Source: an uncultured Spirochaetota bacterium (lineage in GTDB: Bacteria; Spirochaetota; Spirochaetia; SZUA-6; Fen-1364). Taken from it: a DNA stretch of 64,000 nt. The notes under the pieces are model-generated. The model made no database searches. It was not told where the DNA came from and worked only from the letters and a program-made list of their open reading frames with translations. The stretch spans positions 576,001 to 640,000 of the forward strand of contig CAVTHO010000004.1 of NCBI GenBank assembly GCA_963734545.1, given 5' to 3'. This document shows, one piece after another, positions 33,050 to 51,666 of this stretch. The position numbers and the translations under genes are program-made. Position 1 is the stretch's first letter. The number at the start of each line of letters is the position of its first letter.

Positions 33050-33118
33050 GCACATGACGATGCGCGATCCTCTTCCGACTGTCAATTCTCCTGTCGTTGT
33101 GGTATCAATGATACTGCG

Positions 33119-34800: not shown

Positions 34801-36301
34801 ATCGTAGTATCTTCTTCAGCTCCTCTTCCCACCGCCCGTACGCCTCGAGATAGGCGGGTCTCCGCGATTGATCCGGCTCGGCGATCTGCACGGCCTTCAG
34901 GCCGACAAAAGCCTCTTTCATGGTGGTGTACACACCCGCGCCGAGGCCGGCGCCGCGCGCGGCGCCCTGCGCGCCGTCCGTGCTGAAGAGCTCCACCCGG
35001 GCTCCCGTGACGCTGGCAAAGGCGTCGCGAAACAGCGGACTGAGGAACATGTTGGCGTGACCGGCGCGCACGGTGCGTGCTTCGACCCCCATGCCTCTCA
35101 TGATCCCGAGGCCGTACTGAAGCGCGAATACGATCCCTTCCTGCGCAGCCCGGAGAAGGTGAGGAATACCGTGCCTGTTGAAGTCGAGCCCGAGGATCGA
35201 CGCGCCCGGGTTCCTGTTCTCCAGCGTCCTTTCCGCGCCGTTTCCGTAGGGGAGGATGATCAGGCCGTCGGACCCGATCGGCGCCTCCGAGGCGACCCGG
35301 TTCAGCTCGTCATAGGGGACCGCTCCCGAGTCCCCCACGAGCAGGCGTCGGATCCAGCTGTAAAGGATGCCTGTCCCATTGACGCACATGAGGACGCCGT
35401 AGCGGGGGTTCTCCTTCGAATGCGTGACGTGGACAAATGTGTTCACCCGTGACGCCTCGTCATGGGCCGGCGAGGAGGTGATGCCATAGACCACGCCGGA
35501 AGTTCCCGCGGTGGTGGCAGCCTCCCCCGGATCCACCACGCTGAGGGAAAACGCGTTGTTCGGCTGATCGCCCGCCCTGTAGCAGACCGGCGTTCCCTTC
35601 TTCAGGCCGAGCGCGGCGGCCGCTTCAGCCGTCAGACCGCCCTGCACGGAGAATGTCGGCGAGGGCTCGGGAACCATTTCCCGAGGAATCCCGTACCAAT
35701 CCAGCACGAAATCCGCCAGACCCTGCCGTGAGAAATCCCAGAGGATGCCCTCCGAGAGCCCCGAAGGAGACGTGCGGATTTCCCCCGTCATGCGCAGGGC
35801 CACCCAGTCACCGGGGAGCATGAACTTTGCGACACGTGCGAAAATGTCCGGCTCGTTCTCTTTTACCCATGCGAGCTTGGAGGCGGTGAAATTGCCGGGG
35901 GAGTTCAGCAGGCGTGAGAGGCAGGTCTGCTCACCAATGCCGCGAAACGCATTTTCGCCGATCTGCACCGCCCTGCTGTCGCACCAGATGATGGAAGGCC
36001 GCAGCACCTTCCCGGCCTTGTCCACGAGCACCAGGCCGTGCATCTGGTAGGTGATTCCGATCCCGAGGACCGCGTCGAATGCCTTCCCCGTGGAAGCCTT
36101 GAGCTCCGCGGCTGCCGCGAGGATGTTCTCCCACCAGATCGAAGGGTCCTGCTCGGCCCAGCCCGGCCGCTTTGCCTCTATGGCAAGCTCCTTCTTCGGG
36201 GAGGTTGCCGCGCCTGCCACGACCCCTGTGCCCGCGTCCAGCAGAGTCGCCTTGATCGCGGAGCTCCCCACGTCGATGCCCAAGAGGTATCCGTCACGCA
36301 T
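34799..36301 (-). CDS. xylB: FGGY-family carbohydrate kinase, xylulokinase-like
   Basis: LGIDVGSS, QMHGLV, IIWCDSR, AGDQ, GTSG, PYGNGAER. Confidence 0.85.
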   Translation of the reverse strand: MRDGYLLGIDVGSSAIKATLLDAGTGVVAGAATSPKKELAIEAKRPGWAEQDPSIWWENILAAAAELKASTGKAFDAVLGIGITYQMHGLVLVDKAGKVLRPSIIWCDSRAVQIGENAFRGIGEQTCLSRLLNSPGNFTASKLAWVKENEPDIFARVAKFMLPGDWVALRMTGEIRTSPSGLSEGILWDFSRQGLADFVLDWYGIPREMVPEPSPTFSVQGGLTAEAAAALGLKKGTPVCYRAGDQPNNAFSLSVVDPGEAATTAGTSGVVYGITSSPAHDEASRVNTFVHVTHSKENPRYGVLMCVNGTGILYSWIRRLLVGDSGAVPYDELNRVASEAPIGSDGLIILPYGNGAERTLENRNPGASILGLDFNRHGIPHLLRAAQEGIVFALQYGLGIMRGMGVEARTVRAGHANMFLSPLFRDAFASVTGARVELFSTDGAQGAARGAGLGAGVYTTMKEAFVGLKAVQIAEPDQSRRPAYLEAYGRWEEELKKILR

Positions 36302-36438
36302 GTGGTGGTTATACCCGAGCGCGCCCGGCTTGGGAAGTCCGCGCGGCGCCGGCCGTACGGCGCCGCATCCGGTGGAGAGTCTCGTTCCTTGACGCCGGCG
36401 GACCGAGCGTCTATGCTTTTCTGTCGGGGGAGGCGCAC

Positions 36439-36702
36439 ATGGAACCAGACAAGGGGAACGAGTTCAAGGTCAAGGGCGAAGAGCTGCTCAAAAAGATCAA
36501 AGACATCGTCCACGAGGGAAATGTCCGCAAGATCATCATCAAGGACGACAAGGGCACGCCCTACATGGAGATTCCGCTTACGTTCGGCGTGGTCGGGGCC
36601 CTTATTGCCCCCGTGCTGGCCGCGGTGGGAGCGCTTGCCGCGCTGGCGTCCAACTTTACCCTGGAGATCGTGCGCAAGGACGGGGATTCCAAGACCACCT
36701 AG
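36439..36702 (+). CDS. DUF4342-like small protein
   Basis: KIKDIVHEGNVRKIII...EIPLTFGVVGALIAPVLAAVG. Confidence 0.8.
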   Translation: MEPDKGNEFKVKGEELLKKIKDIVHEGNVRKIIIKDDKGTPYMEIPLTFGVVGALIAPVLAAVGALAALASNFTLEIVRKDGDSKTT

Positions 36703-36896
36703 TAGCGGCGCGAACCTCCCAGGATCCGGGACGGCAGAAAAAGGATTGCCTTGATGAGCGCCAGGACTGCATCCATCGTCATGCCCACTACCCGGAAGGG
36801 CAGCAGCACCAGCCACGCAATGGGGTAGAGCACGAGAACAACAAGGGCCAGCGGCCAGCAGATCAGGACCAGCAGCAGCCAGATCAGGAATCTCAT
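36699..36896 (-). CDS. Small hydrophobic membrane protein, hypothetical
   Basis: 65 aa with CWPLAL...YP...LLPFR; preceded by TTGACA-18-TACCCT. Confidence 0.65.
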   Translation of the reverse strand: MRFLIWLLLVLICWPLALVVLVLYPIAWLVLLPFRVVGMTMDAVLALIKAILFLPSRILGGSRRY

Positions 36897-37012
36897 GGGT
36901 GTGAGGGTAGACGGACCGCCCGGTGATTGTCAATTCAAAGCACACATCCGAGGGGCAAAATCCGTCTCCCGCGGGGTTGTATATCGGTCACCAGAAAGAC
37001 AAGGAGGATGTC

Positions 37013-37306
37013 ATGTCTGACCTCAATGCGAAGGTCGAGCTTGCGCACAAGATCGCGGAGCGCAAGCTGGCGTTCATACGGCACGCAATCAGCTACCTGG
37101 TCGTCATCATCGGCCTGGCCATCGTCAACAACCTCGGCTATGCGAGCGACGGGCCGCGGTACCAGTGGTGGCTCTGGGTGGCGTTCGGATGGGGAATCGG
37201 CGTCGTCTCTCATTTCCTCTCCGCATTCCTCTACCAGTCCGGCAACCTTGTGGAAAAGATGGCGAAACGCGAGCTGGAGAAGATGAATGAGTCGAACAAG
37301 ACTTAG
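37013..37306 (+). CDS. 2TM-domain protein
   Basis: AAGGAGG then ATG at 37013; HAISYLVV...WWLWVAFGWGIGVVSHF. Confidence 0.8.
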   Translation: MSDLNAKVELAHKIAERKLAFIRHAISYLVVIIGLAIVNNLGYASDGPRYQWWLWVAFGWGIGVVSHFLSAFLYQSGNLVEKMAKRELEKMNESNKT

Positions 37307-38192
37307 CCCCATCGACATCCTCGGGATCACTTTGGGAGTCATCGTCATCCTCATCGTCATCGGCAGCGTGGTCGTGATCGCGCAGGGCCGGATGTTCGAC
37401 TTCAGATGGTCGATTCCCGAGCTGCGCGGCTCCTGGGCGCGCCCGCAGGCCTCCATCGGCGGCCCGGTACGGGAAGAAAAGGACGAGAAAATAGCGGGAG
37501 ACTTCGCGGAGATCGAGGTGCGCACCATCGCCGGCTCCATAGCGATCAGCGGGACCTCCGCCGGCGGGGTGAACGTGCACTCCGTGAAGACCGCGATGTT
37601 CCGCAATGCAGCCGACAATGTTCATGTCGAAATCCGGAAACAGGGGAACCGCCTCGTCGTGGAGGAGAAGCACGAGCCGCGTTTCTTCTTTCCCTCCGGC
37701 ACGATCTCGTTCCAGGTCGTGATCCCCCGGGGCGTGAAGCTCATCGATGCGCACTCCGTCAGCGGAAGCATCACGGTGCATGATGTCCTGTCGGGCATCG
37801 ATCAGAGCCTGAGCACGATTTCAGGATCCGTCTCCACGAGCCGCGCGCACAACCTGAGCGCATCCAGCACGAGCGGTCAGATCCAATTCGCCTCGGACGG
37901 CGGCTCTCTCAGCGCGCGCACCGTTTCCGGCTCGATCAATGGTGACATAGACTCCCTTGAAAAAGGGGGTTCCGCACGCCTCGCCACGGTTTCCGGCTCG
38001 GTCACCCTGAACGCGTTCCCCGGCCTGGACGCTAAAATCTCCCTTCATTCGGTGAGCGGGCGCGTTTCCTGTGATTTCCCCGTCACGATCTCCGAGCAGA
38101 AGAACAACCGTCTGGAGGGAACGATCGGCGCGGGGGCGGCCAGCCTGGACGCGGGCACGATCAGCGGAAGCATCAGCATCAACAAGAAGTAG
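37287..38192 (+). CDS. DUF4097-family beta-strand repeat membrane-anchored protein
   Basis: N-terminal TM helix, repeated (T/S)(V/I)SGS(I/V) motifs. Confidence 0.8.
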   Translation: MSRTRLSPIDILGITLGVIVILIVIGSVVVIAQGRMFDFRWSIPELRGSWARPQASIGGPVREEKDEKIAGDFAEIEVRTIAGSIAISGTSAGGVNVHSVKTAMFRNAADNVHVEIRKQGNRLVVEEKHEPRFFFPSGTISFQVVIPRGVKLIDAHSVSGSITVHDVLSGIDQSLSTISGSVSTSRAHNLSASSTSGQIQFASDGGSLSARTVSGSINGDIDSLEKGGSARLATVSGSVTLNAFPGLDAKISLHSVSGRVSCDFPVTISEQKNNRLEGTIGAGAASLDAGTISGSISINKK

Positions 38193-38277
38193 GGGCGGCG
38201 TGCTGCTGCCGGGCGTGCGCCCCTGGCTTGCACGTCGTGCTGCCTCCGTATAGGATCGCGTCCAGGCAGCACGGCTC

Positions 38278-41200
38278 ATGGCAACCGACAAGAGAAAGCA
38301 TACACGTGTCAGTCACCGCGACACGGTGGAGCTCACATCAGGGTCGTACACGTTCTCCGGAACCTCCGTCAACGTCAGTACGAGCGGAATGCAGGTGGTT
38401 GTCCGGCTGCCGGAGTCTCATGATTCGATCCGCAGCATAGCCTTCCAGATCCCCGGCTCCGGCGAACGCGTCGAGCTGCCCTGTCGCCTGATTCGCAATT
38501 CGGAACACGATGTCGAGGGTGACCAGGTCCTGGGCCTCGAATTTCTCTACGAAGCGGATGCCCAGCTCCTGCTCATCGAGAAGTTCATCCAGGATACCCA
38601 GCGCAGCAGGGACGATGCACGCGAGCTTCCCCGGACCTCCTGCCACCTGGACGATGTCACGGTCGAAAACCAGGCGGTCGAGGTTCTCTCCATTGACAAC
38701 CTCTCCACCGAGGGAATGCTTCTCAGCTATCGCGGAAACCTGAGACAGGGCGACCCGCTCACCGTGAGCGTGGGCATTCCGGGGGACGAGCGCCGCCTGC
38801 GCCTGACGGGCGTCGTGGTGTACGTGATGGAGAACGTGCTTCGGGGATCTTTGACGGCGGGCTTGCGGCTGTCGGTCATGAAAGAGACCGAGGAACGCAG
38901 ACTGAGGAATCTCATCGTCGCCTGCTCCTCGGGGAGCGCGATACGCGGCCTGCACCAGCACATTCATTCCAGGACGCTGGAACCCGAGTCCCGAATAACA
39001 GATCCGGTCCTGATCAGCGACATCCTGCAGGCTCTGCAAGTGGAATGCGTGCGCCTGAGCACGCTGGTAGAAGGTTCCTTCACCATCCTCGAGCATGAGG
39101 TTGAGGGCGTTGACCAGGACCTGCGGCGGTTCACGATCAAGCCGGACAGAGCGCTCGTCTCGCGCGCCCTCACACCGGGTGTAGCGGTGTACTTCAGCTT
39201 CTACAGGAACAAGGCCAGCTACTACTTCAAGGCGGAAGCCGCCTCCGCCAGCGACCAGCTCTTGAGCTTCCCTTTTCCCGTCGTCGTGTTCCGCACGGAC
39301 AAGAGATCCTACCAGAGAAAGCCGCTGCAGAACGTCTCTCGCGTGAGGCTGGGGGTCCTCGGAGAGAAGTCGGAAAGGCATACCTTCGAGGGGACATTGA
39401 TCGACATCAGCCGCAGAGGGTTTCTCTGCGAGCTTCATCTCACCGCCGAATCCCAGGCATTATTTCAGAAGGGAAAAGGCATTCATTACACCGTGGACGA
39501 CAGGCTGGGTCTGGGAAGCGAAGGCCAGATCCGACACCTGAAGGCTCTGCCTTCACCCGAAGGCGTTATGCTCCAGGTCGGTGTGGAGGCGGGAATCGGC
39601 AGAAACGCGGTGCGTTCCCGCCGCATCCCGGATGCAGAATGGGAAGAAGGGAACTCGAGCAGGAACTGGCCGCCCGGTCCTGAAAGGCACATCGAGTCCC
39701 ACGTCGTGAGGTTCCCTGACAGGGACGGCCATGAAATCTGCGCCTTCCTCAACGCCACCGAGCTGCGGGTCAAAGCTCCCGTCGTCATCATCCCCTCGGC
39801 ATACGGGAAAAAGAAGGAAGCATTTTCTCCCCTCGTGGCGACCCTGCTCGCGAGCTTCTGGAGCGAGGGAAAGAACATCGTCACGCTGCGCTTCGACGGC
39901 ACCAACCGCCCGGGGGAAAGCTACCAGGAGGAAAGCAATCCACGGCGCGGGTACGAAATGCTCTCCTACAGGATCAGCCAGGGGCTCGGCGATCTCCAGG
40001 CGGCCCTGGACTTCGTACGCGACAACCCGTACTTCATCGCGGAAAAGGTGATCATGGTCTCCTTCAGCATGTCCGCCATTGACGTGCGGCGCCTGCTGAG
40101 CAGGGACGAGGAAAGTGGTGTCGACTACTGGATCAGCGTCATGGGGGTTCCCGCTGCGCAGACCACGCTCCGCAACATCCTGGGCGGCATCGACATCATC
40201 AGCAATTACCGCCTGGGGATTCCGAACGGCATCATCGGGCTGCTGGGGCATCTCATCGACATGGACATCATGGCGGCAGATGTGGTGGACAAGAAATACG
40301 CCTTCCTCACCGACGCGCGCCTGGACATGTCGCGCATCGCCATTCCCGTTCTGTGGATCTACGGCGTGTACGACAAGTGGGTGGAGATGGACGAGGTCAA
40401 GGACCTGATGTCGGTCAAGGCGCGCGGGACACGCGAGACGCTCGAGATCCCCACCGGGCACAACCTGCGCACCAGTGACGACGCCATCCAGACCTTCAAG
40501 CTGATCGCCAGCTCCATCCATGAAAAGCTGTACGGAAAACAGGTCACGGCGCGCGACCCCTGGAAAGAAGAGATGATGCGCGTGCTCACGGAGGAACGCG
40601 AGCGGCTTGAGAACAGGGCGGCTCCCCCGCTCACGGACTACTGGCGCGGGTACCTCCTCGGCAACGAGAGGAACACGGTCGGGTACGATTTCTATCGCCA
40701 TATCCCGGAGTTCAAGTCGTTTTTCAGAACACAGGCAAAATGCCTGTCGCTGGAGGCGGAGGAGATCGTTGCAGACCTGGGCTGCGGCACGGGAATCTTC
40801 CTGGAGGAGCTCCTGGACTTCATTGCGGGCAGGGAAGAGCGAACATCGGTACGAGAGATCACGGCAATCGACCTTATTCCGGACGCTCTGGACAGGACAA
40901 GGGCAAAGTGCGAAAGGATCGTCGCGAGGCACCCCGGCCTGGCTGAAATCGGCTTCCGGTATGTCCAGAAGAACCTGGAGCCCAACAGGCTCATCCCCGT
41001 TGCGCGTTTCATTGAATCAGATGCGCCGTCACTCGAGTCGCTTCGCAACAGGATCGAGGGGCTTTCCAGCAGAGTGCTCGACCGCCTCATCGAGCGAACC
41101 CCACCGGGGCTGCTGGAGGTGATGCGCGGTGCGGTCTCGGAAGAGATGATCTCAGGGCTTGCATCGACCCTGGAGCCGGTGGAGATGCAGACGGTACTGG

Positions 41201-41793
41201 AGTTCAACAGGGCGGCGCGCTTCCTGCAGAATCGGATCGGGCCCCGGGACATCAGGCCGGAGCGCCAGGCCGCGCAGATCGCCCCCGGCAGCCTGCGCAC
41301 GAGCGACCTGTTGTTCGAGACTCTGAGCTTCGACGACTGTGATTCCGTCCTGACCCTGGGGCTGCCTGAGAATCACTTCACAAAGATCGTCGCGAGCCTC
41401 TTCATCTCCTACCTTCGCAATCCAGACTACGCCCTTGCCGAGTGCCATCGCATGCTCACGCCGGGGGGGACCCTCGTGGTGTCCTCCATGAAACCCGACA
41501 GCGATATCTCCACGATATTCACCAACTATATACGAAAGGTGCTGAACCCAAGCTGCCCCGAAGAGGGCGAGAAGGACGACGAAGGCAGCGCCAGCGCTGC
41601 CCGGGCCATGCTCAACGAAGCGGCGAGCCTGTTCGAGCTGGAAGAAGACGGCTTCTTCAAGTTCTACACTGCGGATGAGCTGACAAAGCTGCTTTCCAGC
41701 GCCGGATTCGACGAAATCAGGGTGTTTCCTTCGATGGGAAACCCGGCCCAGGCAAATGTCGCGGTTGCAAGAAAAAGGTTGACAAAATCTTAG
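38278..41793 (+). CDS. Multidomain protein: 3 PilZ domains + LuxD-like acyl-ACP thioesterase + class I SAM methyltransferase
   Basis: PilZ motif pairs RKHTR/NVSTSG, RELPR/NLSTEG and RSYQR/DISRRG. Hydrolase triad candidates SFSMS, YDKWV, GHNL. Methyltransferase motifs DLGCGTG, IDLI and ECHRMLTPGG. Confidence 0.85.
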   Translation: MATDKRKHTRVSHRDTVELTSGSYTFSGTSVNVSTSGMQVVVRLPESHDSIRSIAFQIPGSGERVELPCRLIRNSEHDVEGDQVLGLEFLYEADAQLLLIEKFIQDTQRSRDDARELPRTSCHLDDVTVENQAVEVLSIDNLSTEGMLLSYRGNLRQGDPLTVSVGIPGDERRLRLTGVVVYVMENVLRGSLTAGLRLSVMKETEERRLRNLIVACSSGSAIRGLHQHIHSRTLEPESRITDPVLISDILQALQVECVRLSTLVEGSFTILEHEVEGVDQDLRRFTIKPDRALVSRALTPGVAVYFSFYRNKASYYFKAEAASASDQLLSFPFPVVVFRTDKRSYQRKPLQNVSRVRLGVLGEKSERHTFEGTLIDISRRGFLCELHLTAESQALFQKGKGIHYTVDDRLGLGSEGQIRHLKALPSPEGVMLQVGVEAGIGRNAVRSRRIPDAEWEEGNSSRNWPPGPERHIESHVVRFPDRDGHEICAFLNATELRVKAPVVIIPSAYGKKKEAFSPLVATLLASFWSEGKNIVTLRFDGTNRPGESYQEESNPRRGYEMLSYRISQGLGDLQAALDFVRDNPYFIAEKVIMVSFSMSAIDVRRLLSRDEESGVDYWISVMGVPAAQTTLRNILGGIDIISNYRLGIPNGIIGLLGHLIDMDIMAADVVDKKYAFLTDARLDMSRIAIPVLWIYGVYDKWVEMDEVKDLMSVKARGTRETLEIPTGHNLRTSDDAIQTFKLIASSIHEKLYGKQVTARDPWKEEMMRVLTEERERLENRAAPPLTDYWRGYLLGNERNTVGYDFYRHIPEFKSFFRTQAKCLSLEAEEIVADLGCGTGIFLEELLDFIAGREERTSVREITAIDLIPDALDRTRAKCERIVARHPGLAEIGFRYVQKNLEPNRLIPVARFIESDAPSLESLRNRIEGLSSRVLDRLIERTPPGLLEVMRGAVSEEMISGLASTLEPVEMQTVLEFNRAARFLQNRIGPRDIRPERQAAQIAPGSLRTSDLLFETLSFDDCDSVLTLGLPENHFTKIVASLFISYLRNPDYALAECHRMLTPGGTLVVSSMKPDSDISTIFTNYIRKVLNPSCPEEGEKDDEGSASAARAMLNEAASLFELEEDGFFKFYTADELTKLLSSAGFDEIRVFPSMGNPAQANVAVARKRLTKS

Positions 41794-41806
41794 ATCCTTC
41801 TACAAT
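41779..41806 (+). promoter_or_regulatory. Internal sigma70-like promoter for the ligase-ACP genes
   Basis: TTGACA-16-TACAAT overlapping the end of the PilZ gene; RBS GAGGA before ATG 41845. Confidence 0.6.
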
Positions 41807-41844
41807 AGCCGTTAGTCCAATTAACTCTAATAGAAGAGGAATCT

Positions 41845-43239
41845 ATGATTGGCATAGGGCAAGCCATCAGCGCCTCTCTCCGCGATTGGGGTGATTGGCC
41901 CGCTTTCCTTCAAGTAAGCAAGGCCCGCGGGATCTCTTCCACCTCTTCCGCCGCGTTCTCAGCGAGAATCATCGAGATTGCCCGACAACTCTCGGCCTGG
42001 GGGATTCGGGAAAAGTACCTGGTTCCCCTGTTCCTCGACAACTCAACCGACTTCATCACCATATTCCTGGCCCTGCTCCACATCGGCGCCATCCCTGTCC
42101 TGGTGAAGCGGGAGTACAGGGCCCTGGAGCTGGATGAGATCTTCAGCAATGCCCGTCCCCAGGCCGTGATCACCGAACAGGAGCACATGCGGCTCCTGAC
42201 GCCCTACCTCCGCGACACAATTGTCATTATGCGGTCGGAAAGCCGATTCTCCCTGACGCAATCCGCCGAGGGCCTGCAGTGCCGTGAGGACATCCCGGAT
42301 GACATTGCCTCCATCAACTACACGTATCGAGGATACGGCTACACCCTGGGCGCCATGGTCTCCCACGCTCAGTACCTGCACGGCGCACGGGTGCTGCAGG
42401 ACGGCCTCCAGGCATCAGCGGGAGAAAAGATGCTCATCATCCTGCCGATGGCCCATATCTTCACGATGGTGGGCTGCATTCTCGTCCCTCTGCTCTTCCG
42501 AATGACCAGCGTGATCGTGGACTCCCTGCACCCGCGGCTCCTCTTCCAGTACATCCGCGACTTCCGCATCGAGCACGTGACGTCCGTGCCGGAGATCTAT
42601 GAGCTGCTCTACCGGCTGCGCGACCCTGCCGCGGACCTGTCCTCTCTCAAGGTCTTTGTGTCGGGCGGAAGCCTCCTGACCCCGGACAGCTATTCGACCC
42701 TGACCCGGGCCTTTTCCGTCGACCTGCTTCACGGGTACGGACTGACGGAGTTCACGCCGGTCAGCCGCAACGTGCGCCACGCGGCCAGGCCGGGAACCGT
42801 CGGGCCGCTCTGCGACCAGGTAGAGTGCCGGATAGACCCGGCAGGTCCGGACGGGGCCGGAGAGATCCTGATCAGGACGCCGCACGAGATAGGCAGGTAC
42901 TACCACAGGCCGCGCGAGTCCGACGAAGCGCGGCGCGATGGCTGGTTTCGCACAGGGGATATGGGCCGCATGGACGACGGCCACTTGGTGTTCGTGAAAG
43001 AGCTGAAGAATACGAGAAAAATCAACGGCAACCTCGTGGACATGGAAGAGGTCAGCCGCGCGTTCCGGCTGGACAAGGACGTGGCGGAGGTGCAGGTGGG
43101 GTGGGAAAACAACTCCCTTTTTGCAAACCTTGCATTGAGCCGGCATATCGACTTTGAAGAAAAGACGAAACGGCTGAAGACCTCGCTGCGGGACGTTCTT
43201 GCGGAGTACAAGATACCCCGGCGCTTGAGCGTGTTGTAG
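41845..43239 (+). CDS. AMP-binding (ANL superfamily) acyl-CoA/acyl-ACP ligase-like protein, divergent
   Basis: LPMAHIF, SGGS, GYGLTE and FRTGDMG are present. The P-loop is degenerate (YTYRGYGYTLG) and the C-terminus is short. Confidence 0.8.
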   Translation: MIGIGQAISASLRDWGDWPAFLQVSKARGISSTSSAAFSARIIEIARQLSAWGIREKYLVPLFLDNSTDFITIFLALLHIGAIPVLVKREYRALELDEIFSNARPQAVITEQEHMRLLTPYLRDTIVIMRSESRFSLTQSAEGLQCREDIPDDIASINYTYRGYGYTLGAMVSHAQYLHGARVLQDGLQASAGEKMLIILPMAHIFTMVGCILVPLLFRMTSVIVDSLHPRLLFQYIRDFRIEHVTSVPEIYELLYRLRDPAADLSSLKVFVSGGSLLTPDSYSTLTRAFSVDLLHGYGLTEFTPVSRNVRHAARPGTVGPLCDQVECRIDPAGPDGAGEILIRTPHEIGRYYHRPRESDEARRDGWFRTGDMGRMDDGHLVFVKELKNTRKINGNLVDMEEVSRAFRLDKDVAEVQVGWENNSLFANLALSRHIDFEEKTKRLKTSLRDVLAEYKIPRRLSVL

Positions 43240-43252
43240 GAGGCACGGAAAC

Positions 43253-43528
43253 ATGGGCAATGTACAGGAATACCAGAGCGCGACGCAATTCAAGAATGCA
43301 ATCAAGCAGATCGTGTCACGGATCTCCCGGATCGATGTGGCGGAGCTGGATGACGGGCTCTTGATACGCGAAGAGCTGGGAATCGACAGCCTGATGGCAA
43401 TGGAGATCATTGCCACCTGCGAAAAGCTGCTGGGTTTTAGGATTGATGAAACACTATTCGCCGACGTGAAGACAGTAGAAGATTTCTTCGAGCTTCTCAT
43501 GACCCTCGTAGGGAGGGTGAATGCGTAA
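43253..43528 (+). CDS. Acyl carrier protein
   Basis: Acidic 91-aa protein with the ELGIDSLMAMEI phosphopantetheine site and KTVED. Confidence 0.9.
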   Translation: MGNVQEYQSATQFKNAIKQIVSRISRIDVAELDDGLLIREELGIDSLMAMEIIATCEKLLGFRIDETLFADVKTVEDFFELLMTLVGRVNA

Positions 43529-43705
43529 ATCAGAGCTGCGCATGCTTCCCGCTTCCCCGGCCAGCTCGGTCTTGCTGACGGCCGCAGCGCACGTGCGTTG
43601 CAGCGGGAGTTTTGCCGTAAAAGGGACCGCCTGGCCTGTGACCAGAAGCGCTCCATTGCTATCCTGCGGAAGGCTGGAGCGACTGTCGCAGTCTGGCAAA
43701 CGAGC

Positions 43706-45037
43706 TCAGGCCAGTTGTTTGTATATTTCCTTGAAATAGGCCGACCTGTCCCTGAAAGCCCTCTCGTTGAATATCTGGCGATATGCCCAGATAAAGCCGT
43801 CTTCGAGCTGCTCCTTGGTCATTCCCTTTGGCCGGAAGGTGACGTCGAGGAACGTACAGCGCTCCCAGAACGGCTCGGGGTAGAGGAACCTGTCCTCTTC
43901 CTTCAATCGTTCATACATTCGTGACCCCGGCAGCGGGGTGGCCACCGTCAGCTGGCCGGTCAGCTGGTTTCGGTTCATGAAGTCGACAACGCGGCTGAAC
44001 ACCCCCTGGTTGTCGTGGTCGAGGCCAAAAATAAACGAGCTGAACACCACGATGCCGTGCTCCTGGATGCGGCGCACATGCGCCTCGTAATTCGGAAGCT
44101 GGCGCAGCTTCCAATCATTGCGGTTCATCCCTGATAGATTCTGGGGATCGAGACTTTCGAAACCGATGAGCAGGAAAAGACATCCGGAACGGTAGATCTG
44201 CTGGAGAAGCTCTTCGTCCGCGCCAATGGCGATATCCGTTTGGCCGATCCAACGGACCTTGAGCTCCTCAAGCGCCACCAGAAGCTCCTTGGCGAATCGT
44301 CGATCGGTGAACAGGTTGTCATCAGCGAAGAGGATGAGGCGGTTCGGGACACTGCGTCTTATCGCAGCAATTTCGTTGCGAACCTGAAGTATGGTCTTTT
44401 TGCGCGGCTTCTTTCCGTAGATCCCGGTTACCAGGCAGAACTCGCAATCGTGTGGGCAGCCCCTGCTCGCCTGGACCGGCACAAAGTTGTAGAAGTGTTC
44501 CGGGTCGAGCAGTGTCTTGCTTCCACTCAGAAGATCGTAGCGAGGCAATGGCGATGTGGTGAGATCTATGTAATGACCCGCAGTGTTGCGGTAGATTTGT
44601 TGCGGCTCCCCATTCTGAAAGTCCTGGAGGAAGCGGGGCCAGAGCTCCTCGGCCTCGCCGACGACGACCGTGTCAGCACGGGAAGCGGCCTCTTGTGGCA
44701 TCATGGTGGCGTGACTTCCCCCGATGACAACATAGACGCCCCGGGCCCGGAACTCAGCAGCGATTTGATAGGCACGGACGATAGTCTGAGTCATTGCAGT
44801 GATCCCGACCAGGTCGTAGTTCGCCGTGTAGTCTATCGGAGCAAAGTCTTCGTGGACGATCTCGACGTCGATGGCTGGCGGAGTCAAGCCGGCTATGGTG
44901 AGCAGACTCAAAGACGGCGAGTACCAAGCCTTCAAGAACTTGTGGCACTCACGCAGTGCAAGCGTTATCTTCTCGGTCTTTGCCCAGACATCACGTCTTG
45001 GATTTATCAGGCATATTCGACTCAATGTGCGGCGCAC
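43706..45037 (-). CDS. B12-binding radical SAM protein
   Basis: IGGSHAT cobalamin-domain motif, RGCPHDCEFC, FADDN, IGFES, FIFGLD, TPLPGS. Confidence 0.9.
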   Translation of the reverse strand: MRRTLSRICLINPRRDVWAKTEKITLALRECHKFLKAWYSPSLSLLTIAGLTPPAIDVEIVHEDFAPIDYTANYDLVGITAMTQTIVRAYQIAAEFRARGVYVVIGGSHATMMPQEAASRADTVVVGEAEELWPRFLQDFQNGEPQQIYRNTAGHYIDLTTSPLPRYDLLSGSKTLLDPEHFYNFVPVQASRGCPHDCEFCLVTGIYGKKPRKKTILQVRNEIAAIRRSVPNRLILFADDNLFTDRRFAKELLVALEELKVRWIGQTDIAIGADEELLQQIYRSGCLFLLIGFESLDPQNLSGMNRNDWKLRQLPNYEAHVRRIQEHGIVVFSSFIFGLDHDNQGVFSRVVDFMNRNQLTGQLTVATPLPGSRMYERLKEEDRFLYPEPFWERCTFLDVTFRPKGMTKEQLEDGFIWAYRQIFNERAFRDRSAYFKEIYKQLA

Positions 45038-45211
45038 GGGCGCGAGTATATGACGCAGCGATCTCCCGGCGCAAGGGCAATCTCGAGACGCAGCGCGGGA
45101 GGATCCTGACCAGGGGCTTCTGCAAGCGTGCGAAAGGGTATATGATGCTGGAAATGCCCGGCGCGCTCAGTATTTCTGGAAGGTGTGAGAAAATACCATA
45201 GAAAGGCGAGA

Positions 45212-47726
45212 ATGAGCTCAGAGAATCCGGCTCTCTCAAGCGACCTATCCTCTCTCCACGCCGGATTCGAGGCGGAAACCAGGGAAAAAGCGATTCGAGA
45301 CCTTCGTCTCGTCGTAGTGATCGCGGGTGTTTTCTACATGCTCTTCCTCATTCTCGACTATTTCGCGTATCCCGGCCTATTTCTCACTTTTCTGCTGATA
45401 CGGTGCATAGTCGTTTTCGGCAGTGGGCTGATTTTTCTTCTGATGTGGACACCAATGGGCACAGCGCACCCCCGCCTTTTCGCGATGCTTGAATACCTGT
45501 TGTGCGGCTCGGGCATCATGGTGATGGTTCATCTTTCAGGCGGTTACACCAGCTCGTACTATGCCGGCGTCATCCTGGTCCTGCTGTTTTTCATTTCCAT
45601 CCTACCCCTGGACGACAAGAGAACCCTGTTCATATGCGTGATTCTCTACGCAATGTATCTCGTGCCGATCCTCGCGCTGCAGAGGATCGTCCGATTCGAT
45701 ATATTCCTGAACAACAACTTCTTTCTCTTCACCACGATCGCTCTTGTAGTCCTCAGCTCGCAACTTGCCACCCAGATGCGGTTTCGGGAGTTCAGCGGCA
45801 GATTCAATCTTGCCCGCGCAAATGAGGAGCTGAAGAAGCTCGACGTCCTGAAGTCCCAGTTCTTCGCGAACGTGAGCCACGAGGTCCGCACTCCCCTCAC
45901 CTCCATCCTGTCGCCCATCCAGAGCCTGTACCAGGGAGACCTTGGGCCCCTGGTTCCCGAGCATCAAATGCTCATCGGACAGGTCTACCGCAACGCGCTG
46001 AAGCTGCTCGATATGATCAACCAGATGCTCGATTTCTCGAAATTCGAAGCACGCAAGATGCAGCTCCGTCTCAAGCACGTCGACATAGACGAGCTGGCAC
46101 GGGACATCGTGACGACCTTCCAGGACGTCACGGAGCGGAAGGGATTGAAGCTGCGCTACGTGGTTGAGGGGGAATTGCCGCCCGCATACCTGGACGCGGA
46201 AAAGCTCGAGCGAATCCTTACCAATCTGATTCGAAACGCCATCAAGTTCACAGAGAGCGGGTCCATTACCGTCCGGGTCGGCGCCACGCCGGTGAACCGG
46301 TGGCTCGAAGTCAGGGACACCGGCATCGGCATTCCGATGCAGCATCTTGCGAATATCTTCAACAGGTTCCAGCAGGTGGACTCCTCCTCCACGCGAAAAT
46401 ACGAAGGAACGGGGCTCGGTCTCACGATCGTCAAGGAGTCGGTGGAGCTGATGCAGGGGAGCGATCAATGTCCAGAGCGAGGAAAGGCGGGGCACGACGT
46501 TTCGGATCGAGCTGCCGGCAAACCTGGATCAGCTTGCCCCGGACGCGTTCGTCGACAGGAGGAAGGACGCGCAGCGCCGGCAGCCCGCTGATGAGTTCGA
46601 CGGCGACGAAAAAAGAAGGAAAGCGCGGCGTGAATCGGACCTGGCGCGGATCACCGTGGATGATCTTGCCCTTATCGAGAAAGAGACCATCGACCGCGAA
46701 GCAAAGGACGGCCGCGTCCCTGCGCACGATGGGAACGGCAACGCCGACCACATCCTGCTCGTGGAGGACAACGTCGACCTCAGGGCCTACATCAGCAAGA
46801 TGCTCTCCCGGTTCGGGCATGAAGTGGCCACGGCCATCGACGGACTGGACGGCTGGGAGCATGCACAGACGGACCTCCCCGATCTCGTGGTGTCGGACAT
46901 CATGATGCCGCGCATGGACGGCTACGAGCTGGTGGGCCGGATCAAGTCCACTGACACGACCCGGCATATCCCGGTGATCCTGATCACGGCGAAGCCGGAG
47001 ATCGAATCCAAGCTGGAAGGGCTGCAGAAGGGCGCGGACGACTATCTGCCCAAGCCCATCAACATCCGCGAGCTGGACGCCCGCATCCGGAACCTTCTCG
47101 TGACCCGGAACCTCCAGCAGGCGCTGGCGCGTGAAGCCGAGCTGGGCGCGCGGATGGAAGAGCTCAGCATGAGCTTCTCCCAATCACTGGAGATCCGGGA
47201 CTTCAACACTGCCGGCCATTCGCGTGACGTCCTGTACCTGGGCACGATCATCGCGGAAGGAATCGGCATCCCGGTGGACCGCATGCTGAAGGATTCACTT
47301 CTCCTGCACGATATCGGCAAGCTGGGCATACCCGACCGGATTCTCCTCAAGGAGTCGCCGCTGAACGAGGAGGAGTGGAAGATCATGAGAACCCACCCCG
47401 AGCTGGGGGCGAGCCTGCTCGGGCACTTCGAGTCCTATCGGGAGATAAGCAGCATCATCCTCGCGCACCAGGAGCACCTGAACGGCACCGGCTATCCACG
47501 GGGATTGAAGGGCGACGAGATCCCCCTGTTCGCCCGGATCATCGCCATCGCGGATGCCTACCACGCAATGACCAGCAACCGCCCGTACCGCAAGGCGCTC
47601 CCGGCGAGCAGGGCAGTGCTCGAGCTCACGCGGAACCGCGGCACGCAGTTCGATGCCGCGCTCGTCGATGCCTTCATAAAGGGTCTCCTGCAGCGCAGGA
47701 TCATTACGATGGAAGACATCATGTGA
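45212..47726 (+). CDS. Membrane sensor histidine kinase fused to REC and HD-GYP phosphodiesterase domains, frameshift in G-run near 46458
   Basis: 5-6 TM helices; H-box SHEVRTPL; boxes NAIKFT, DTGIG, GTGLGL. The shifted frame reads MQGAINVQSE...TTFRIELP and runs without a stop into REC (VEDN, SDIMMP, KP) and HD-GYP (HDIGK, GTGYP, IADAYHAM). Confidence 0.85.
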
Positions 47727-47765
47727 GCGGGTAGCAATGGCGGAAGCGCCGCCGCGAGAGCGGGC

Positions 47766-48797
47766 TCAGGGCAGCCGGTTGAACCACAGCAGAGAGAGCG
47801 TACCGGCGAGCAGGAGCAGCGCTATTGCGATTGCCGTAAACAGCGCGGTGACCTCGGTCTGGTCCTTCCCCACGATGAGGCGGGTGCTCAGGGATTTGTA
47901 GATTTTTATCAGGTCCCCGGCGTCGTTCGCCTTGAAATACTGCCCGCCCGTGTTCTGCGCAATTCTCTTCAGGCTCGCCTCGTCGAGTCCCACACGGAAC
48001 GAGCGGCCTTCGAAGCCGATGACGTCTCCCCGCGCGCTTCCCAGCCCCACGGTGAATATGCGGATTCCCCGGTTGGCCGCTTTCTCCGCCGCGTCCAGCG
48101 GATCGGGTCCCTGGTTGTTCTGTCCGTCGCTGAGCAGGACGATGACCGCGGAATTGTTCGAACCGGGCGCAACCGGATCCGGTTCAGGCGGTGACGGCGG
48201 TGCCGGCAGCAGCGGATCACTCGGAGCCGACAGGGAGGCAGGGGTCTGACCTGGCTGCTCATCCTCCAGAATGGCGTCCAAGGCGACGAGGATCCCGCTT
48301 CCGATGGCCGTTCCCCGCTGGAGCATGAGACGCTCGATCGCGCCGCGTATGTCCTCCCGGGCGGTGGTCGGTGCCTGTACCAGTGCCGCTGTCCCGCTGA
48401 AAGCGGCGACCCCGATCCGCACCCGGGGCGGCTGCTTGTTTACGAATTCGAGCGCCGCCTGTTTTGCCGCCTCCATCCGGGTCGGCTTGATGTCCTGCGC
48501 GCGCATGCTTCCCGAGATGTCCATGGCAAGGATCACCGTGCCCCTGTTCGAGGGCAGGGAGATGGTGGCAAGCGGGCGCGCCAACGCGAAGATCATGACT
48601 GTCAGCGAGACCAGGAAAAGCAGGGCCGGGATGTGCCGGCGAAAGCCGGGGCCCCGGCCAAGGGCATCCTTCACGAGCATCAGGCTCGCATAGCGGATTG
48701 CGAACTTCTGCCGGCGTCTCTGCGCCCAGAGGTAGAAAAGAACGAGCACCGGCACGAGCAGCAGGAACCAGAGCATCGAGGTCCATTGAAATGTCAT
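47766..48797 (-). CDS. BatA-like VWA-domain membrane protein
   Basis: MIDAS DISGSM, TAIG, LLSDG; N- and C-terminal TM helices. Confidence 0.9.
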   Translation of the reverse strand: MTFQWTSMLWFLLLVPVLVLFYLWAQRRRQKFAIRYASLMLVKDALGRGPGFRRHIPALLFLVSLTVMIFALARPLATISLPSNRGTVILAMDISGSMRAQDIKPTRMEAAKQAALEFVNKQPPRVRIGVAAFSGTAALVQAPTTAREDIRGAIERLMLQRGTAIGSGILVALDAILEDEQPGQTPASLSAPSDPLLPAPPSPPEPDPVAPGSNNSAVIVLLSDGQNNQGPDPLDAAEKAANRGIRIFTVGLGSARGDVIGFEGRSFRVGLDEASLKRIAQNTGGQYFKANDAGDLIKIYKSLSTRLIVGKDQTEVTALFTAIAIALLLLAGTLSLLWFNRLP

Positions 48798-49726
48798 GAC
48801 ACTTCCCGCAGGCCGTGCGCGGCACGGGAGGCCGGTGCCGCGCGGCGCTGTTTGCGCTCAATGGCGAACCGGACGATTTCCCTCGCCATGTCGCCCTCCG
48901 TGGACAATGAGAGGAGCTCGACGCCCCGACGGGCGAGCAGGCTGTCGAGCTCCTCACGCCTCTTGCGGGCGGCCGCGGCGAACCGCCTCCTGAAACCGTG
49001 GTCGTGCGTGTCGAGGAAGAGCTGCTCGCCCGTTTCCGCGTCCTCGAACACGATGGCGCCCACGTCCGGGAGCTCCGACTCCCGCGGGTCGGAGAGCCGC
49101 ACCCCGAGGATCTCGTGTCTGCGGGTGAGCATGTCCAGCGGCTTGTCCCAGCCCGTCACGCTGAGAAAGTCGGACACGACGAACAGCAGGGAACGCCGGC
49201 CGATGATGCGGAGGGCCGATTCGAGGAGCAGGGAGAGGTCGGTCTGGGGCGCGCGCTGAAGCCGGGGCTGACCCTGAAGCTCCTGGATGAGGCGCAGGAC
49301 ATGGGTCCGCCCGCCCCGCGCGGGAATGGTGCGCGCGGGCGCGCCGCTGAAGATCAGCGCCCCTACCCGGTTTCCGTGCCGCGTGAGCAGCCGCGCAAGG
49401 ACGCCGACGAAGTCGACGAGCAGCTTCCTCTTGTCCGTGGCAACCGTGCCGAAGTCCACCGAGGGGCTCATGTCGAGGAGGAACCACGCGGTGACCTCCC
49501 TGTCCTCCATGTACTGCCGCACGTAGGGGGTCTGCAGCCGCGCTGTCACGTACCAGTCGATCGTCCGCACGTCGTCGGTGAGCTGGTATTCGCGCAGGTC
49601 CGCCAGCTCGAGCCCGAAGCCGCGGAACAAGGTCCGATAGTTGCCCTGCAGGATCCCGTCGAGCCGGCGGATCACCGTCCAGTCCAGCCGCTGGAGAATC
49701 CTCTCGGGGTCAGAGGGCTGCGGCAT
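48794..49726 (-). CDS. DUF58-domain protein
   Basis: LREYQLTDDVRTIDWYVTAR, VSDF; lies in a MoxR operon. Confidence 0.9.
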   Translation of the reverse strand: MPQPSDPERILQRLDWTVIRRLDGILQGNYRTLFRGFGLELADLREYQLTDDVRTIDWYVTARLQTPYVRQYMEDREVTAWFLLDMSPSVDFGTVATDKRKLLVDFVGVLARLLTRHGNRVGALIFSGAPARTIPARGGRTHVLRLIQELQGQPRLQRAPQTDLSLLLESALRIIGRRSLLFVVSDFLSVTGWDKPLDMLTRRHEILGVRLSDPRESELPDVGAIVFEDAETGEQLFLDTHDHGFRRRFAAAARKRREELDSLLARRGVELLSLSTEGDMAREIVRFAIERKQRRAAPASRAAHGLREVS

Positions 49727-50761: not shown

Positions 50762-51613
50762 CTAAACGGGGGGTGAGCCGACCACGCCGCCCGCCGTGTC
50801 GATGGGGACGGCGAAGCCGATCCCGATGAATACGTCCTGGTTTGTCGGATTCAAGAGCGATGTGACGATGCCCACCACTTCCCCGTTCCTGTTGACCAGA
50901 GGCCCCCCGGAGTTGCCGGGGTTCACCGCGGCATCGAACTGGATGAGGTTTTTCAGCGTGGCCCCTGTCTCACGGGAGGTGTACTGCCTGCCCAGGCCGG
51001 AGACGACACCGTCGGAGGTCGAAAAGAAGACCCCGAACGGGTTGCCCACCGCGATCACCTCGTCCCCGACGTGCAGGGAGGCCGAGCTCACGAGGGTCGC
51101 GGGCTTCAGGTCATCCGGCACCTTCATGGCGCTCAGCACCGCAAGGTCGTTCTCCGGCTGCCGCACCATCACCTGCGCATCCGACTCCGTGCCGTCCGCG
51201 AACACGACCTTCACCGAGGCGGCGTCCTTCACGACGTGAAGGCAGGTCAGGATGATGCCCGTGTCCACGACCACGACGCCGGCGCCCAGCGACGCGCGGG
51301 GCTTCCCGTCTCCGGGCACGACGGCCTCCACCGCCACGACGGACGGCAGAATGACGTCATAGGCGACCGAGGCATTCGAGGGTTTGGGCGGCGCGTTCTC
51401 GAGAGAGCGGTCCACCGCCGCGTCGATGTCTCTCTGGGTGAGTCGTTGCGGGACCGGCCGGAGCGCGTTGTAGACGAGGAGGGCAACGAGCGTGATGATG
51501 ATCTGGGCGGCTATGAGGAAAAGCGTCCGATGGCCCTGGTACGCGCCCCTGAGCCATTGACGGACAAGCTGCCAGTCTGAAGGCGGGCTCGCCTTAGGAT
51601 CTTCTATATACAC
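50762..51613 (-). CDS. Trypsin-like (S1C/HtrA-type, no PDZ) membrane-anchored serine protease
   Basis: Triad motifs TCLHVV, NDLAV, NPGNSGGPL. Confidence 0.88.
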   Translation of the reverse strand: MYIEDPKASPPSDWQLVRQWLRGAYQGHRTLFLIAAQIIITLVALLVYNALRPVPQRLTQRDIDAAVDRSLENAPPKPSNASVAYDVILPSVVAVEAVVPGDGKPRASLGAGVVVVDTGIILTCLHVVKDAASVKVVFADGTESDAQVMVRQPENDLAVLSAMKVPDDLKPATLVSSASLHVGDEVIAVGNPFGVFFSTSDGVVSGLGRQYTSRETGATLKNLIQFDAAVNPGNSGGPLVNRNGEVVGIVTSLLNPTNQDVFIGIGFAVPIDTAGGVVGSPPV

Positions 51614-51666
51614 AGATGAAGATACTGCGATGCGGCGGCCGGGGGAAATAATATCCGGTTATCTTC

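Follow-up and report, generated by a model that had tools for sequence, protein, structure and literature searches.

A recurrent five-gene module with a PilZ–hydrolase–methyltransferase fusion, a private acyl carrier protein and an HD-GYP hybrid kinase as a candidate c-di-GMP-coupled lipid pathway of uncultured Spirochaetota

PilZ receptors of cyclic di-GMP (c-di-GMP) are best known for gating polysaccharide synthases, braking flagella and acting as transcription factors. In cyanobacterial starter cassettes of the JamABC type, a fatty acid is loaded by an ANL enzyme onto a dedicated acyl carrier protein (ACP) and altered there by a tailoring enzyme, and then handed off. In the Rpf system of Xanthomonas, responsible for diffusible signal factor (DSF) signalling, a chain derived from acyl-ACP is freed by thioesterase activity (as outlined in PMC13660987), and a membrane kinase acts via a receiver (REC)-HD-GYP regulator, by which c-di-GMP is placed under two-component control (as outlined in bioRxiv 10.1101/2021.11.05.467447). 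In the Phc system of Ralstonia, PhcB, a methyltransferase dependent on S-adenosylmethionine (SAM), makes a fatty acid methyl ester signal, and the system includes the sensor histidine kinase PhcS (according to the accessible text of PMC8578825 and PMC11960443). Here we describe a locus whose logic resembles that of these systems, with an ANL-family gene within the cluster, as found in Rpf. It lies at positions 38278–47726 of a 64,000-nucleotide stretch of contig CAVTHO010000004.1 (positions 576,001 to 640,000; hereafter the window) from an uncultured Spirochaetota bacterium, and it encodes a PilZ–hydrolase–methyltransferase fusion, an ANL-like protein, an ACP, a B12-binding radical SAM enzyme and a membrane histidine kinase joined to REC and HD-GYP domains. 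We find the module to be genuine and to occur widely among uncultured anaerobes, with no description in the literature searched.

The preliminary description of this DNA had placed five adjacent genes here, and the listing of open reading frames (ORFs), together with Pfam and NCBIfam profile scans, bore this out, with all five components located in 38278–47726. Gene A (38278–41793, plus strand, 1171 amino acids, aa) encodes the fusion, gene B (41845–43239, plus strand, 464 aa) the ligase-like ANL protein with its AMP-binding domain, and gene C (43253–43528, plus strand, 91 aa) the ACP, which was as described: it gave a Pfam PP-binding match of 43.9 bits and carried the DSL phosphopantetheine-attachment motif with Ser46. 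Gene D (43706–45037, minus strand, 443 aa) encodes the radical SAM enzyme, and the kinase, gene E/F, fills the remainder of the locus on the plus strand. The preliminary description had also proposed a search for co-occurrence of the five genes elsewhere, and they do recur together; the possibility that their homologues do not co-occur was thereby ruled out. A pattern scan for gene A, covering one genome per species in 185,579 species, returned 55 loci, and in tblastn searches of these loci with the window proteins the order A, B, C, D, E/F recurred nearly everywhere that the contig reached. When only loci with enough downstream sequence were counted, the ANL-like gene was present in 44 of 45, the ACP gene in 43 of 44, the kinase in all 41, REC-HD-GYP in all 39, and a radical SAM gene in 35 of 41 (33 on the same strand in the slot between ACP and kinase, and two divergent and upstream). 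When every ORF of the 55 loci was clustered without supervision, exactly the five module families emerged; any other family occurred in nine loci at most, and those that recurred were housekeeping genes, each set confined to one sub-lineage. In relatives, neighbouring genes of the module are contiguous or overlapping, as in locus L011, where the kinase begins at 10373, before the end of the radical SAM gene at 10385. A single genome locus, L028 (JBDRMW010000183.1), held the long fusion without B and C next to it, and unrelated genes were found there (a Na/alanine symporter fragment, a DsbD-like gene and pyruvate kinase). An order shared by dozens of species-level genomes places the adjacency far beyond chance. 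Its domain content, intact motifs, conserved order and pairing of gene A with the kinase are matters of observation, and the module itself is well supported. It probably represents one functional unit, vertically conserved across a patchy set of anaerobic Spirochaetota.

The host labels of the 55 loci were spirochaete in 44, Desulfobacterales or Thermodesulfobacteriota in six and 'Eubacteriales' bins in two, the other three being unlabelled. Homologues of A were labelled as Spirochaetia or Spirochaetota metagenome-assembled genomes (MAGs), and near relatives came from metagenome runs of peat, freshwater, soil and wetland. The A family comprised at least 239 protein clusters at 90% identity. 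Gene A was found in eight of 401 genomes in an even sample of Spirochaetota and in eight of 21 genomes of the host genus, its own genome counted, and a search of 20 genomes from other genera of the same order gave no true match. In a midpoint-rooted FastTree phylogeny of 41 long A proteins, the Desulfobacterales sequences nested among the spirochaete ones, which suggests that A was passed from spirochaetes to some Desulfobacterales. Two unusual loci were observed in Desulfotignum MAGs (L041 and L064), in which the hybrid kinase has a different C-terminal domain and is followed by two separate REC-HD-GYP-like matches, and the fusion lacks the first PilZ domain (match from residue 113). In another locus, L012 (G014:C19:283000-301000), the module and its flanks (FGGY, DUF4097, DUF58, ACP, kinase) were split into several tblastn pieces in different frames; this fragmentation fits an error-prone long-read assembly, so that apparent gene loss there needs caution.

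The fusion protein combines a c-di-GMP receptor region with two catalytic domains. Pfam PilZ (PF07238) matched it over two stretches at 69 bits (cutoff 22.5), and the PilZ-type paralog domain TIGR02266 at 54 bits. With a profile of 20 homologues, residues 249–432 matched the YcgR-like protein PP4397 (2gjg, 3kyf), from which the N-terminus reads as PilZ, PilZ, PilZN-PilZ. The presence of three PilZ domains had been proposed beforehand, and three pairs of the motifs RxxxR and [D/N]xSxxG, as defined in the accessible text of bioRxiv 10.1101/2020.02.11.943704, were indeed found: R6/R10 with N32/S34/G37 in PilZ1 (residues ~1–105), R115/R119 with N141/S143/G146 in PilZ2 (~110–215), and R343/R347 with D376/S378/G381 in the YcgR-like PilZN-PilZ3 (~249–432). 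The motifs of PilZ2 and PilZ3 were kept in all 41 long A members and those of PilZ1 in 36–39 of the 41. All three domains are therefore predicted to be canonical for c-di-GMP binding; according to the same text, tandem PilZ proteins usually have only one canonical domain.

The central part of the fusion (residues ~470–755) is a LuxD-like alpha/beta hydrolase with a Ser597/Asp699/His728 triad. Its Pfam match to Acyl_transf_2, the LuxD type (PF02273, residues 563–713), was marginal (21.6 bits against 20.3). Its AlphaFold2 (AF2) model, with a mean predicted local distance difference test (pLDDT) score of 93.9, had LuxD (1tht) as the top fold match in Foldseek (E 2.3e-14, TM-score 0.77), and LuxD was also first by VIA (Z 28.0, rmsd 2.6 over 258 residues). 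The triad was present in all 41 long members and was invariant also in an alignment including distant forms. The C-terminal part (residues ~756–1171) is a class I SAM methyltransferase, modelled at a pLDDT of 86.9, with a helical insert of ~150 aa at ~881–1030; the Pfam methyltransferase core was split accordingly into residues 825–880 and 1023–1145. The SAM motif DxGxGxG and its acidic residue are kept, in agreement with the methyltransferase that had been assigned to the fusion, and DxGxGxG was found in all 41 long members and was invariant when distant forms were included. Foldseek and VIA identified no relative of the insert, and a search for stand-alone forms of the methyltransferase gave mainly fragmentary sequences from short contigs.

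A profile of the methyltransferase domain revealed a wider family of 366 clusters (50% identity) at E values up to 1e-30, including forms of ~830 aa and of 960–1110 aa. Among ten such forms scanned, Pfam PilZ was found in six and Acyl_transf_2 in both forms of 955–967 aa, and the alignments of the wider family showed an invariant triad, methyltransferase motif and one PilZ motif pair. The ~830-aa form defines a sister subfamily, which was studied in 80 metagenome loci (L085–L164), with A recognised in 73; the short-form query against the 401 Spirochaetota genomes returned only the long form, in eight genomes. No ligase, ACP or radical SAM gene was found beside A in the 80 sister loci. Where at least 1.5 kb of downstream sequence was available (n = 42), the gene after A was a kinase with the homologous sensor in 21 loci and an MMPL gene in 18, and where at least 4.5 kb was available (n = 19), a kinase lay within 4 kb in 18. 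Overall, 28 sister loci had a recognised MMPL gene and seven a LolA-like gene. The sister kinase aligns to the window kinase from about residue 30, the membrane domain included, and its output, a phosphorelay (REC-HATPase, then REC-GAF-kinase), includes no HD-GYP. Since the pairing is kept in both subfamilies, the PilZ–hydrolase–methyltransferase enzyme and this type of membrane kinase appear, from sequence comparison, to be an old and stable pair, with the slot between them holding either a lipid exporter or a substrate-supply cassette. The sister subfamily also provides the best indirect evidence that the product would be hydrophobic and exported from the cytoplasm, and that the enzyme and the sensor would be functionally tied. 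Further genes were observed in the sister loci: upstream of the fusion, a large AAA_16 plus Trans_reg_C regulator (24 loci) and a P-loop kinase fused to a cytidine/dCMP-deaminase-type domain (26 loci), and, after the kinases in eight loci, an unannotated ORF of ~215 aa.

The kinase, gene E/F, probably starts at a GTG at 45185 or an ATG at 45212. According to its hydropathy profile, the N-terminus forms about six hydrophobic segments with very short loops (sensor residues ~40–195), and the family alignment revealed conserved polar residues inside these segments. The sensor weakly resembles MASE8: the best match to PF20968, in one of five orthologues scanned, reached E 0.01 and 16.4 bits (cutoff 26.2), the second had E 1.4, the window's own sensor gave none, and the Atlas feature score to MASE8 clusters was 0.95. 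The order TM-HisKA-HATPase-REC-HD-GYP, starting from the transmembrane (TM) segments, was found in one ORF in 34 of 38 clustered hybrid proteins, and the H-box, the REC Asp region, HD and GK were at least 90% conserved in the 38 hybrid kinases. The output domain matched HD_5 at 122.8 bits and HD at 69 bits, and its HDIGK and GTGYP motifs align to 4mcw and 5z7c. The HD-GYP consensus given in the accessible text of bioRxiv 10.1101/2021.11.05.467447 is HHExh(D/N)GxGYP; since this allows D or N, the Asn of the window sequence lies within it. The same text states that REC-HD-GYP regulators need their kinases for activity. Through this output domain, E/F probably destroys c-di-GMP.

Genes B, C and D form the cassette that lies between enzyme and kinase in the window's subfamily. 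The AMP-binding domain (PF00501) of B scored 164.8 bits (cutoff 29.9), all NCBIfam models fell below their cutoffs, and the best PDB relatives by sequence were malonyl-CoA synthetases. Gene D gave Pfam matches to PF02310 (45.4 against 32.1) and PF04055 (42.5 against 29.5) and contains CPHDCEFC at residue 194; CxxxCxxC was found in all 35 radical SAM members. Two types of this enzyme occur, 41–43% identical, of which D2 is co-directional and found in most loci, and D, the type of the window, is the minority. NCBIfam scores for both lay below every family cutoff (best HpnJ, 92–116 bits against 577.6), so that by these cutoffs neither type belongs to a named subfamily (HpnJ, BchE, PhpK, ladderane-type and others). 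The radical SAM gene was absent from six of 41 loci, and three genomes without it in the locus (G007, G010 and G014) had elsewhere only paralogues 37–43% identical, not separable from other B12 radical SAM genes. The tailoring enzyme named in the preliminary description carries the expected B12-binding and Radical_SAM domains and cluster motif, but it is an optional component that comes in two types ~41% identical. A tandem of five B12-binding radical SAM paralogues, on one strand and 33–39% identical to D, was also observed in the same genus (G006:C27:2668-12486).

In the window, D is reversed within an inserted segment of 1.55 kb (43550–45099). Against G014, blastn showed this segment as a clean insertion, with the flanks 4 nt apart in L012, and no meaningful repeats flank it. 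The junctions of the reversed arrangement were bridged by independent contigs from metagenome runs X1, X5 and X6, so that the arrangement is not a chimera of the source assembly. Between the window and its closest relative, G002, blastn homology ends at 43502 and restarts at 45522. Over the module, identity to G002 was 94% for the hydrolase, 94% for DHp/CA and 95% for HD-GYP, against 64% for the ACP and 51% for the kinase membrane domain, and the radical SAM enzyme was replaced (~42%). The lowest GC content falls in the same stretch; the dip in parts of 43700–45750 that had been noticed by eye was confirmed by values of 0.511 for the ACP gene, 0.562 for the radical SAM gene and 0.519 for the TM part of the kinase gene, the whole window having 0.628. 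Within the genus, the sensor type does not track the radical SAM type: the sensor of the window, which has the D type, is closest to those of D2-type loci L016 (73%) and L017 (70%), versus 45% for D-type L015.

Taking the module as a whole, we favour, with moderate confidence, c-di-GMP-gated release and methylation of a carrier-bound acyl chain, in which the fused kinase–phosphodiesterase sets the local c-di-GMP level. The private ACP would bear an acyl or acid substrate, loaded or otherwise handled by the atypical ANL-like protein B, and the B12 radical SAM enzyme would, in most lineages, tailor the tethered chain. Fusion A probably releases and methylates the carrier-bound acid: its LuxD-like hydrolase domain would cut the thioester, and its methyltransferase domain would methylate the freed acid, most simply to a methyl ester. 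The three PilZ domains would put this final enzyme under c-di-GMP dependence, whether activating or inhibiting, and the hydrophobic product would leave the cytoplasm. The MASE8-like intramembrane kinase E/F would phosphorylate its own REC domain, which would switch on the HD-GYP domain, lower c-di-GMP and thereby reset A. Throughout this scheme we infer the substrate and the reactions on it, the type of methylation, whether the PilZ effect is positive or negative, and the activity of the phosphodiesterase.

Several observations weigh against parts of this scheme. The thioesterase assigned to the fusion holds in so far as the triad is kept and LuxD is the top fold match, but feruloyl esterases and lipases lie within 1 Z of LuxD (26.4–27.4 versus 28.0), and the NCBIfam LuxD equivalog (NF052253) scored 20 against a cutoff of 420; with this tie, the hydrolase could be an O-esterase. 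The methyltransferase matched only generic class I folds in Foldseek and VIA (e.g., CmoA and OxaG, Z ~20), among which O-, C-, N- and S-methylation are indistinguishable for the modelled domain. The loading of an acyl chain on the ACP by the ligase, as proposed in the preliminary description, is doubtful. Instead of the Ser/Thr/Gly-rich P-loop of malonyl-CoA and feruloyl-CoA synthetase chains (SGTTGRSKG or SGSTGRPKG), B has YRGYGYTLG, its 'ytyrgygytlga' aligning to 'ytsgttgrskga' and 'ytsgstgrpkga' of the PDB chains, and YRGxGYPLG is conserved in all 37 aligned members where adenylating relatives have SGTTGxxKG. Moreover, B ends just after YKIP, ~25 residues short of its PDB relatives and three residues past position 478 of a 506-residue chain, and all 37 members stop within a few residues of YKIP or bear unrelated tails. 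The missing C-terminal segment is presumably the one that holds the catalytic lysine of adenylation in ANL enzymes. Without P-loop and C-terminal segment, ATP-dependent loading may not occur as proposed, and by its sequence B is a strongly derived ANL protein.

The kinase raises further points of this kind. The preliminary description had it fused to REC-HD-GYP, and it is a single ORF in G002 (846 aa) and G001 (845 aa), but in the window it is frameshifted into two ORFs: the listed kinase ORF (45185–46591, plus strand; multi-TM, HisKA/HATPase) and a second listed ORF with REC plus HD_5/HD (46656–47726, plus strand). Three-frame translation showed that the HATPase domain runs from frame 2 into frame 0 near 46455–46465, so that the gene consists of a first part with membrane sensor, HisKA and HATPase (45185–46460, plus strand) and a second part in frame 0 with the HATPase end, linker, REC and HD-GYP (46464–47726, plus strand). 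DNA alignment to L011 and L017 located one extra base between them (46461–46463), and close relatives assembled from two further metagenome runs (X1 and X7) likewise lack the one at 46461. The extra base may stem from misassembly or from a recent mutation that inactivates the gene; a programmed frameshift was rejected, as the relatives simply lack the base. As for the degradation of c-di-GMP that had been assigned to the HD-GYP domain, HD and GYP are intact, but the window sequence is HQEHLNGTGYP rather than the complete consensus, with HQE in 26 of 34 HD-GYP domains and HHE in eight. In the HD-GYP work cited above, as far as its accessible text goes, proteins with altered, more degenerate HHE motifs do not hydrolyse c-di-GMP. 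The absence of HD-GYP from the sister subfamily makes the phosphodiesterase link specific to the window's subfamily, and ORF clustering of the 55 loci found no diguanylate cyclase as part of the module. Finally, the positions given in the preliminary description were right, but the operon of the window is interrupted, with gene D on the minus strand inside the 1.55-kb insertion.

A specialisation of the favoured explanation, which is no alternative to the module, is an autoinducer loop. In this case, the exported methylated acyl product would be the ligand of the MASE8-like kinase, and its perception would destroy c-di-GMP and feed back on synthesis in a manner similar to quorum sensing. A role of the module as a signal is plausible, and this particular loop is possible, though we hold it only tentatively. 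The pairing of A with the kinase persists across two deeply diverged subfamilies as the intervening genes change, and MMPL and LolA-like exporters adjoin A in the sister subfamily, although ORF clustering of the 55 loci gave no exporter in the window's own. The sensor, whose ~six TM segments are linked by very short loops and contain conserved polar residues, would suit a membrane-soluble ligand. Within the genus, it is the fastest-evolving and most mosaic part (51% between the window and G002, versus 94–95% for the hydrolase, DHp/CA and HD-GYP), next to an ACP 64% identical and a replaced radical SAM enzyme; however, the sensor type does not track the radical SAM type within the genus, and membrane domains are often fast-evolving without a change of ligand. 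The module is patchy, present in eight of 21 genomes of the genus, and the Ralstonia Phc operon likewise pairs a methyltransferase that makes methyl esters with a sensor kinase, as presented in the accessible text of PMC8578825 and PMC11960443. Nevertheless, if c-di-GMP activates A, the wiring is a negative feedback, which would serve homeostasis rather than a quorum switch. A bolder extension, which we regard as doubtful, is that free-living anaerobic spirochaetes and, by transfer, some sulfate reducers possess a family of lipid-type autoinducer systems of their own: a tailored acyl methyl ester, made on a private carrier by the c-di-GMP-gated fusion, would be sensed by the MASE8-like kinase and answered by c-di-GMP destruction, and the stretch of carrier, radical SAM enzyme and sensor would be exchanged between strains as signal 'dialects', similar to agr pherotypes.

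The product could also be a structural lipid. Kinases of the DesK type respond to the physical state of the membrane. By this logic, lipids of the envelope or membrane would be remodelled under the control of c-di-GMP: the kinase would respond to the membrane rather than to the product, and a branched or methylated acyl chain or ester, for example, would be destined for the membrane or the outer membrane. The location of the sensor within the membrane agrees with this possibility, as do the MMPL and LolA-like genes of the sister loci, which are of the envelope-lipid-export kind, the neighbours of D among sub-threshold NCBIfam models, which include HpnJ, HpnR and a 'lipid biosynthesis B12-binding/radical SAM protein', and the use of the acyl-ACP pool by LuxD-like enzymes (PDB 1tht). 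Despite this, remodelling appears rather unlikely, as a private ACP and a single-copy accessory operon with patchy occurrence (8/21) would be unusual for bulk lipid synthesis, ORF clustering of the 55 loci showed no acyltransferase to glycerol or a similar acceptor in the module, and a methyl ester is no head group for membrane anchoring.

In the BioC/BioH logic, a carboxylate is masked as a methyl ester that an esterase later removes. An analogous cycle of protection, modification and deprotection would have the methyltransferase cap the free carboxylate of an ACP-bound dicarboxylic acid, the radical SAM enzyme act on it and the esterase uncap it, with a small, polar product bearing no methyl ester. 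The union of an esterase and a methyltransferase in one chain would suit such a cycle, the hydrolase model being as near to carboxyl-esterases (Z 26.4–27.4) as to LuxD (28.0), and so would the malonyl-CoA synthetases found as best PDB relatives of B and the weak NCBIfam matches to BioC, the malonyl-ACP O-methyltransferase (29.6 bits against a cutoff of 184.95), and to AmcH, the 2-oxoglutaryl-ACP ligase (86 bits against 370). However, all NCBIfam matches lie far under the family cutoffs, the radical SAM enzyme is dispensable in six of 41 loci, and in the sister subfamily, which has no ACP, ligase or radical SAM gene, A adjoins a lipid exporter; we consider this cycle improbable. As for the five genes being neighbours by chance or misassembly, with no joint function, the reversed radical SAM gene in its inserted segment, the broken kinase gene and the draft nature of the source MAG (5.14 Mb in 10 contigs, 89% complete, 4.9% contamination) would point that way, but this was rejected and deserves next to no credence given the same order in 55 species-level genomes and many metagenome contigs, the outcome of ORF clustering, the bridged junctions and the flanks (FGGY kinase, DUF4097, BatA, DUF58) that are syntenic in G002 and G014.

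The genes flanking the locus are unrelated to the module, with an FGGY kinase and DUF4097 upstream and BatA/DUF58/MoxR downstream on the opposite strand. An Rfam scan of 36000–49000 (E up to 0.1) found no riboswitch and no other RNA family, and the counts of promoters and terminators at the locus were not above those of shuffled sequence (3 versus 2.4 and 10 versus 6.8, respectively). A near-consensus sigma-70-like site (TTGACA, 16 nt, TACAAT; 11/12) was observed at 41779–41806, overlapping the end of gene A just upstream of B, in a region where the counts of such sites are no higher than in shuffles. Further away in the window, 50762–54000 (minus strand) encodes a 777-aa protein with an N-terminal caspase domain (Peptidase_C14), beside a trypsin-like peptidase gene and downstream of the MoxR/DUF58/BatA set, and 31838–34750 holds a 970-aa ORF in which amidohydrolase domains are confined to the last ~160 residues and the first ~800 are without a Pfam match.

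In this module, three intact PilZ domains are fused directly to an enzyme of small-molecule or lipid chemistry based on a carrier protein, and the sensor kinase of the same operon has a c-di-GMP phosphodiesterase domain as its output. If the favoured explanation is true, it would be a compact, self-contained circuit in which the second messenger is tied to the synthesis of a hydrophobic metabolite and perhaps to its perception; should the autoinducer loop also be true, c-di-GMP would both gate a cell-to-cell signal and be reset by it, within one five-gene operon. The hosts are uncultured spirochaetes of peat, sediment and soda lakes whose signalling is undescribed, and the family is modular, with either a lipid exporter or a ligase–ACP–radical SAM cassette between enzyme and kinase. 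It also offers several objects for biochemistry, namely a P-loop-less ANL protein, an HD-GYP domain with HQE in place of HHE and a MASE8-like sensor with a candidate source of its ligand encoded next to it.

The preliminary description had named no described system of this composition, and literature searches agreed, giving neither a PilZ–hydrolase–methyltransferase fusion nor this gene set, although the supplements of PilZ and HD-GYP surveys might list the architecture. No crotonase/enoyl-CoA hydratase (ECH) of the RpfF family was found by Pfam or NCBIfam in six window ORFs, nor among the conserved neighbours. Since the crotonase is absent and the methyltransferase has only generic similarity, the module is, as judged from its domains, not a member of the Rpf or Phc families. 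Unlike in Rpf, the kinase, REC and HD-GYP of the module form one polypeptide, the synthase bears three PilZ domains, a private ACP, a B12 radical SAM enzyme and a methyltransferase are added, and the host belongs to the Spirochaetota rather than to the Gammaproteobacteria. The Phc system has no PilZ, ACP, radical SAM or HD-GYP component, and its output is transcriptional, through PhcA; the matches of the module's methyltransferase were to generic class I families only. With LuxD of the Vibrio lux system (1tht), a myristoyl-ACP thioesterase/acyltransferase, the hydrolase shares the best fold match, a marginal Pfam match and the Ser-Asp-His triad, but sequence identity is 15–16%, LuxC and LuxE partners are absent from the module, and the hydrolase is fused to PilZ domains and a methyltransferase. 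The module departs from the JamABC type in that its ANL protein has neither P-loop nor C-terminal segment, tailoring would be done by a B12 radical SAM enzyme, no downstream polyketide synthase (PKS) or nonribosomal peptide synthetase (NRPS) is present, and release would fall to a fusion with c-di-GMP receptor domains. Finally, among PilZ-gated enzymes and YcgR-like receptors (BcsA, YcgR/PP4397 and MrkH), gene A is related through residues 249–432, which match PP4397, whereas its output is a hydrolase–methyltransferase, in contrast to outputs by glycosyl transfer, flagellar braking or DNA binding.

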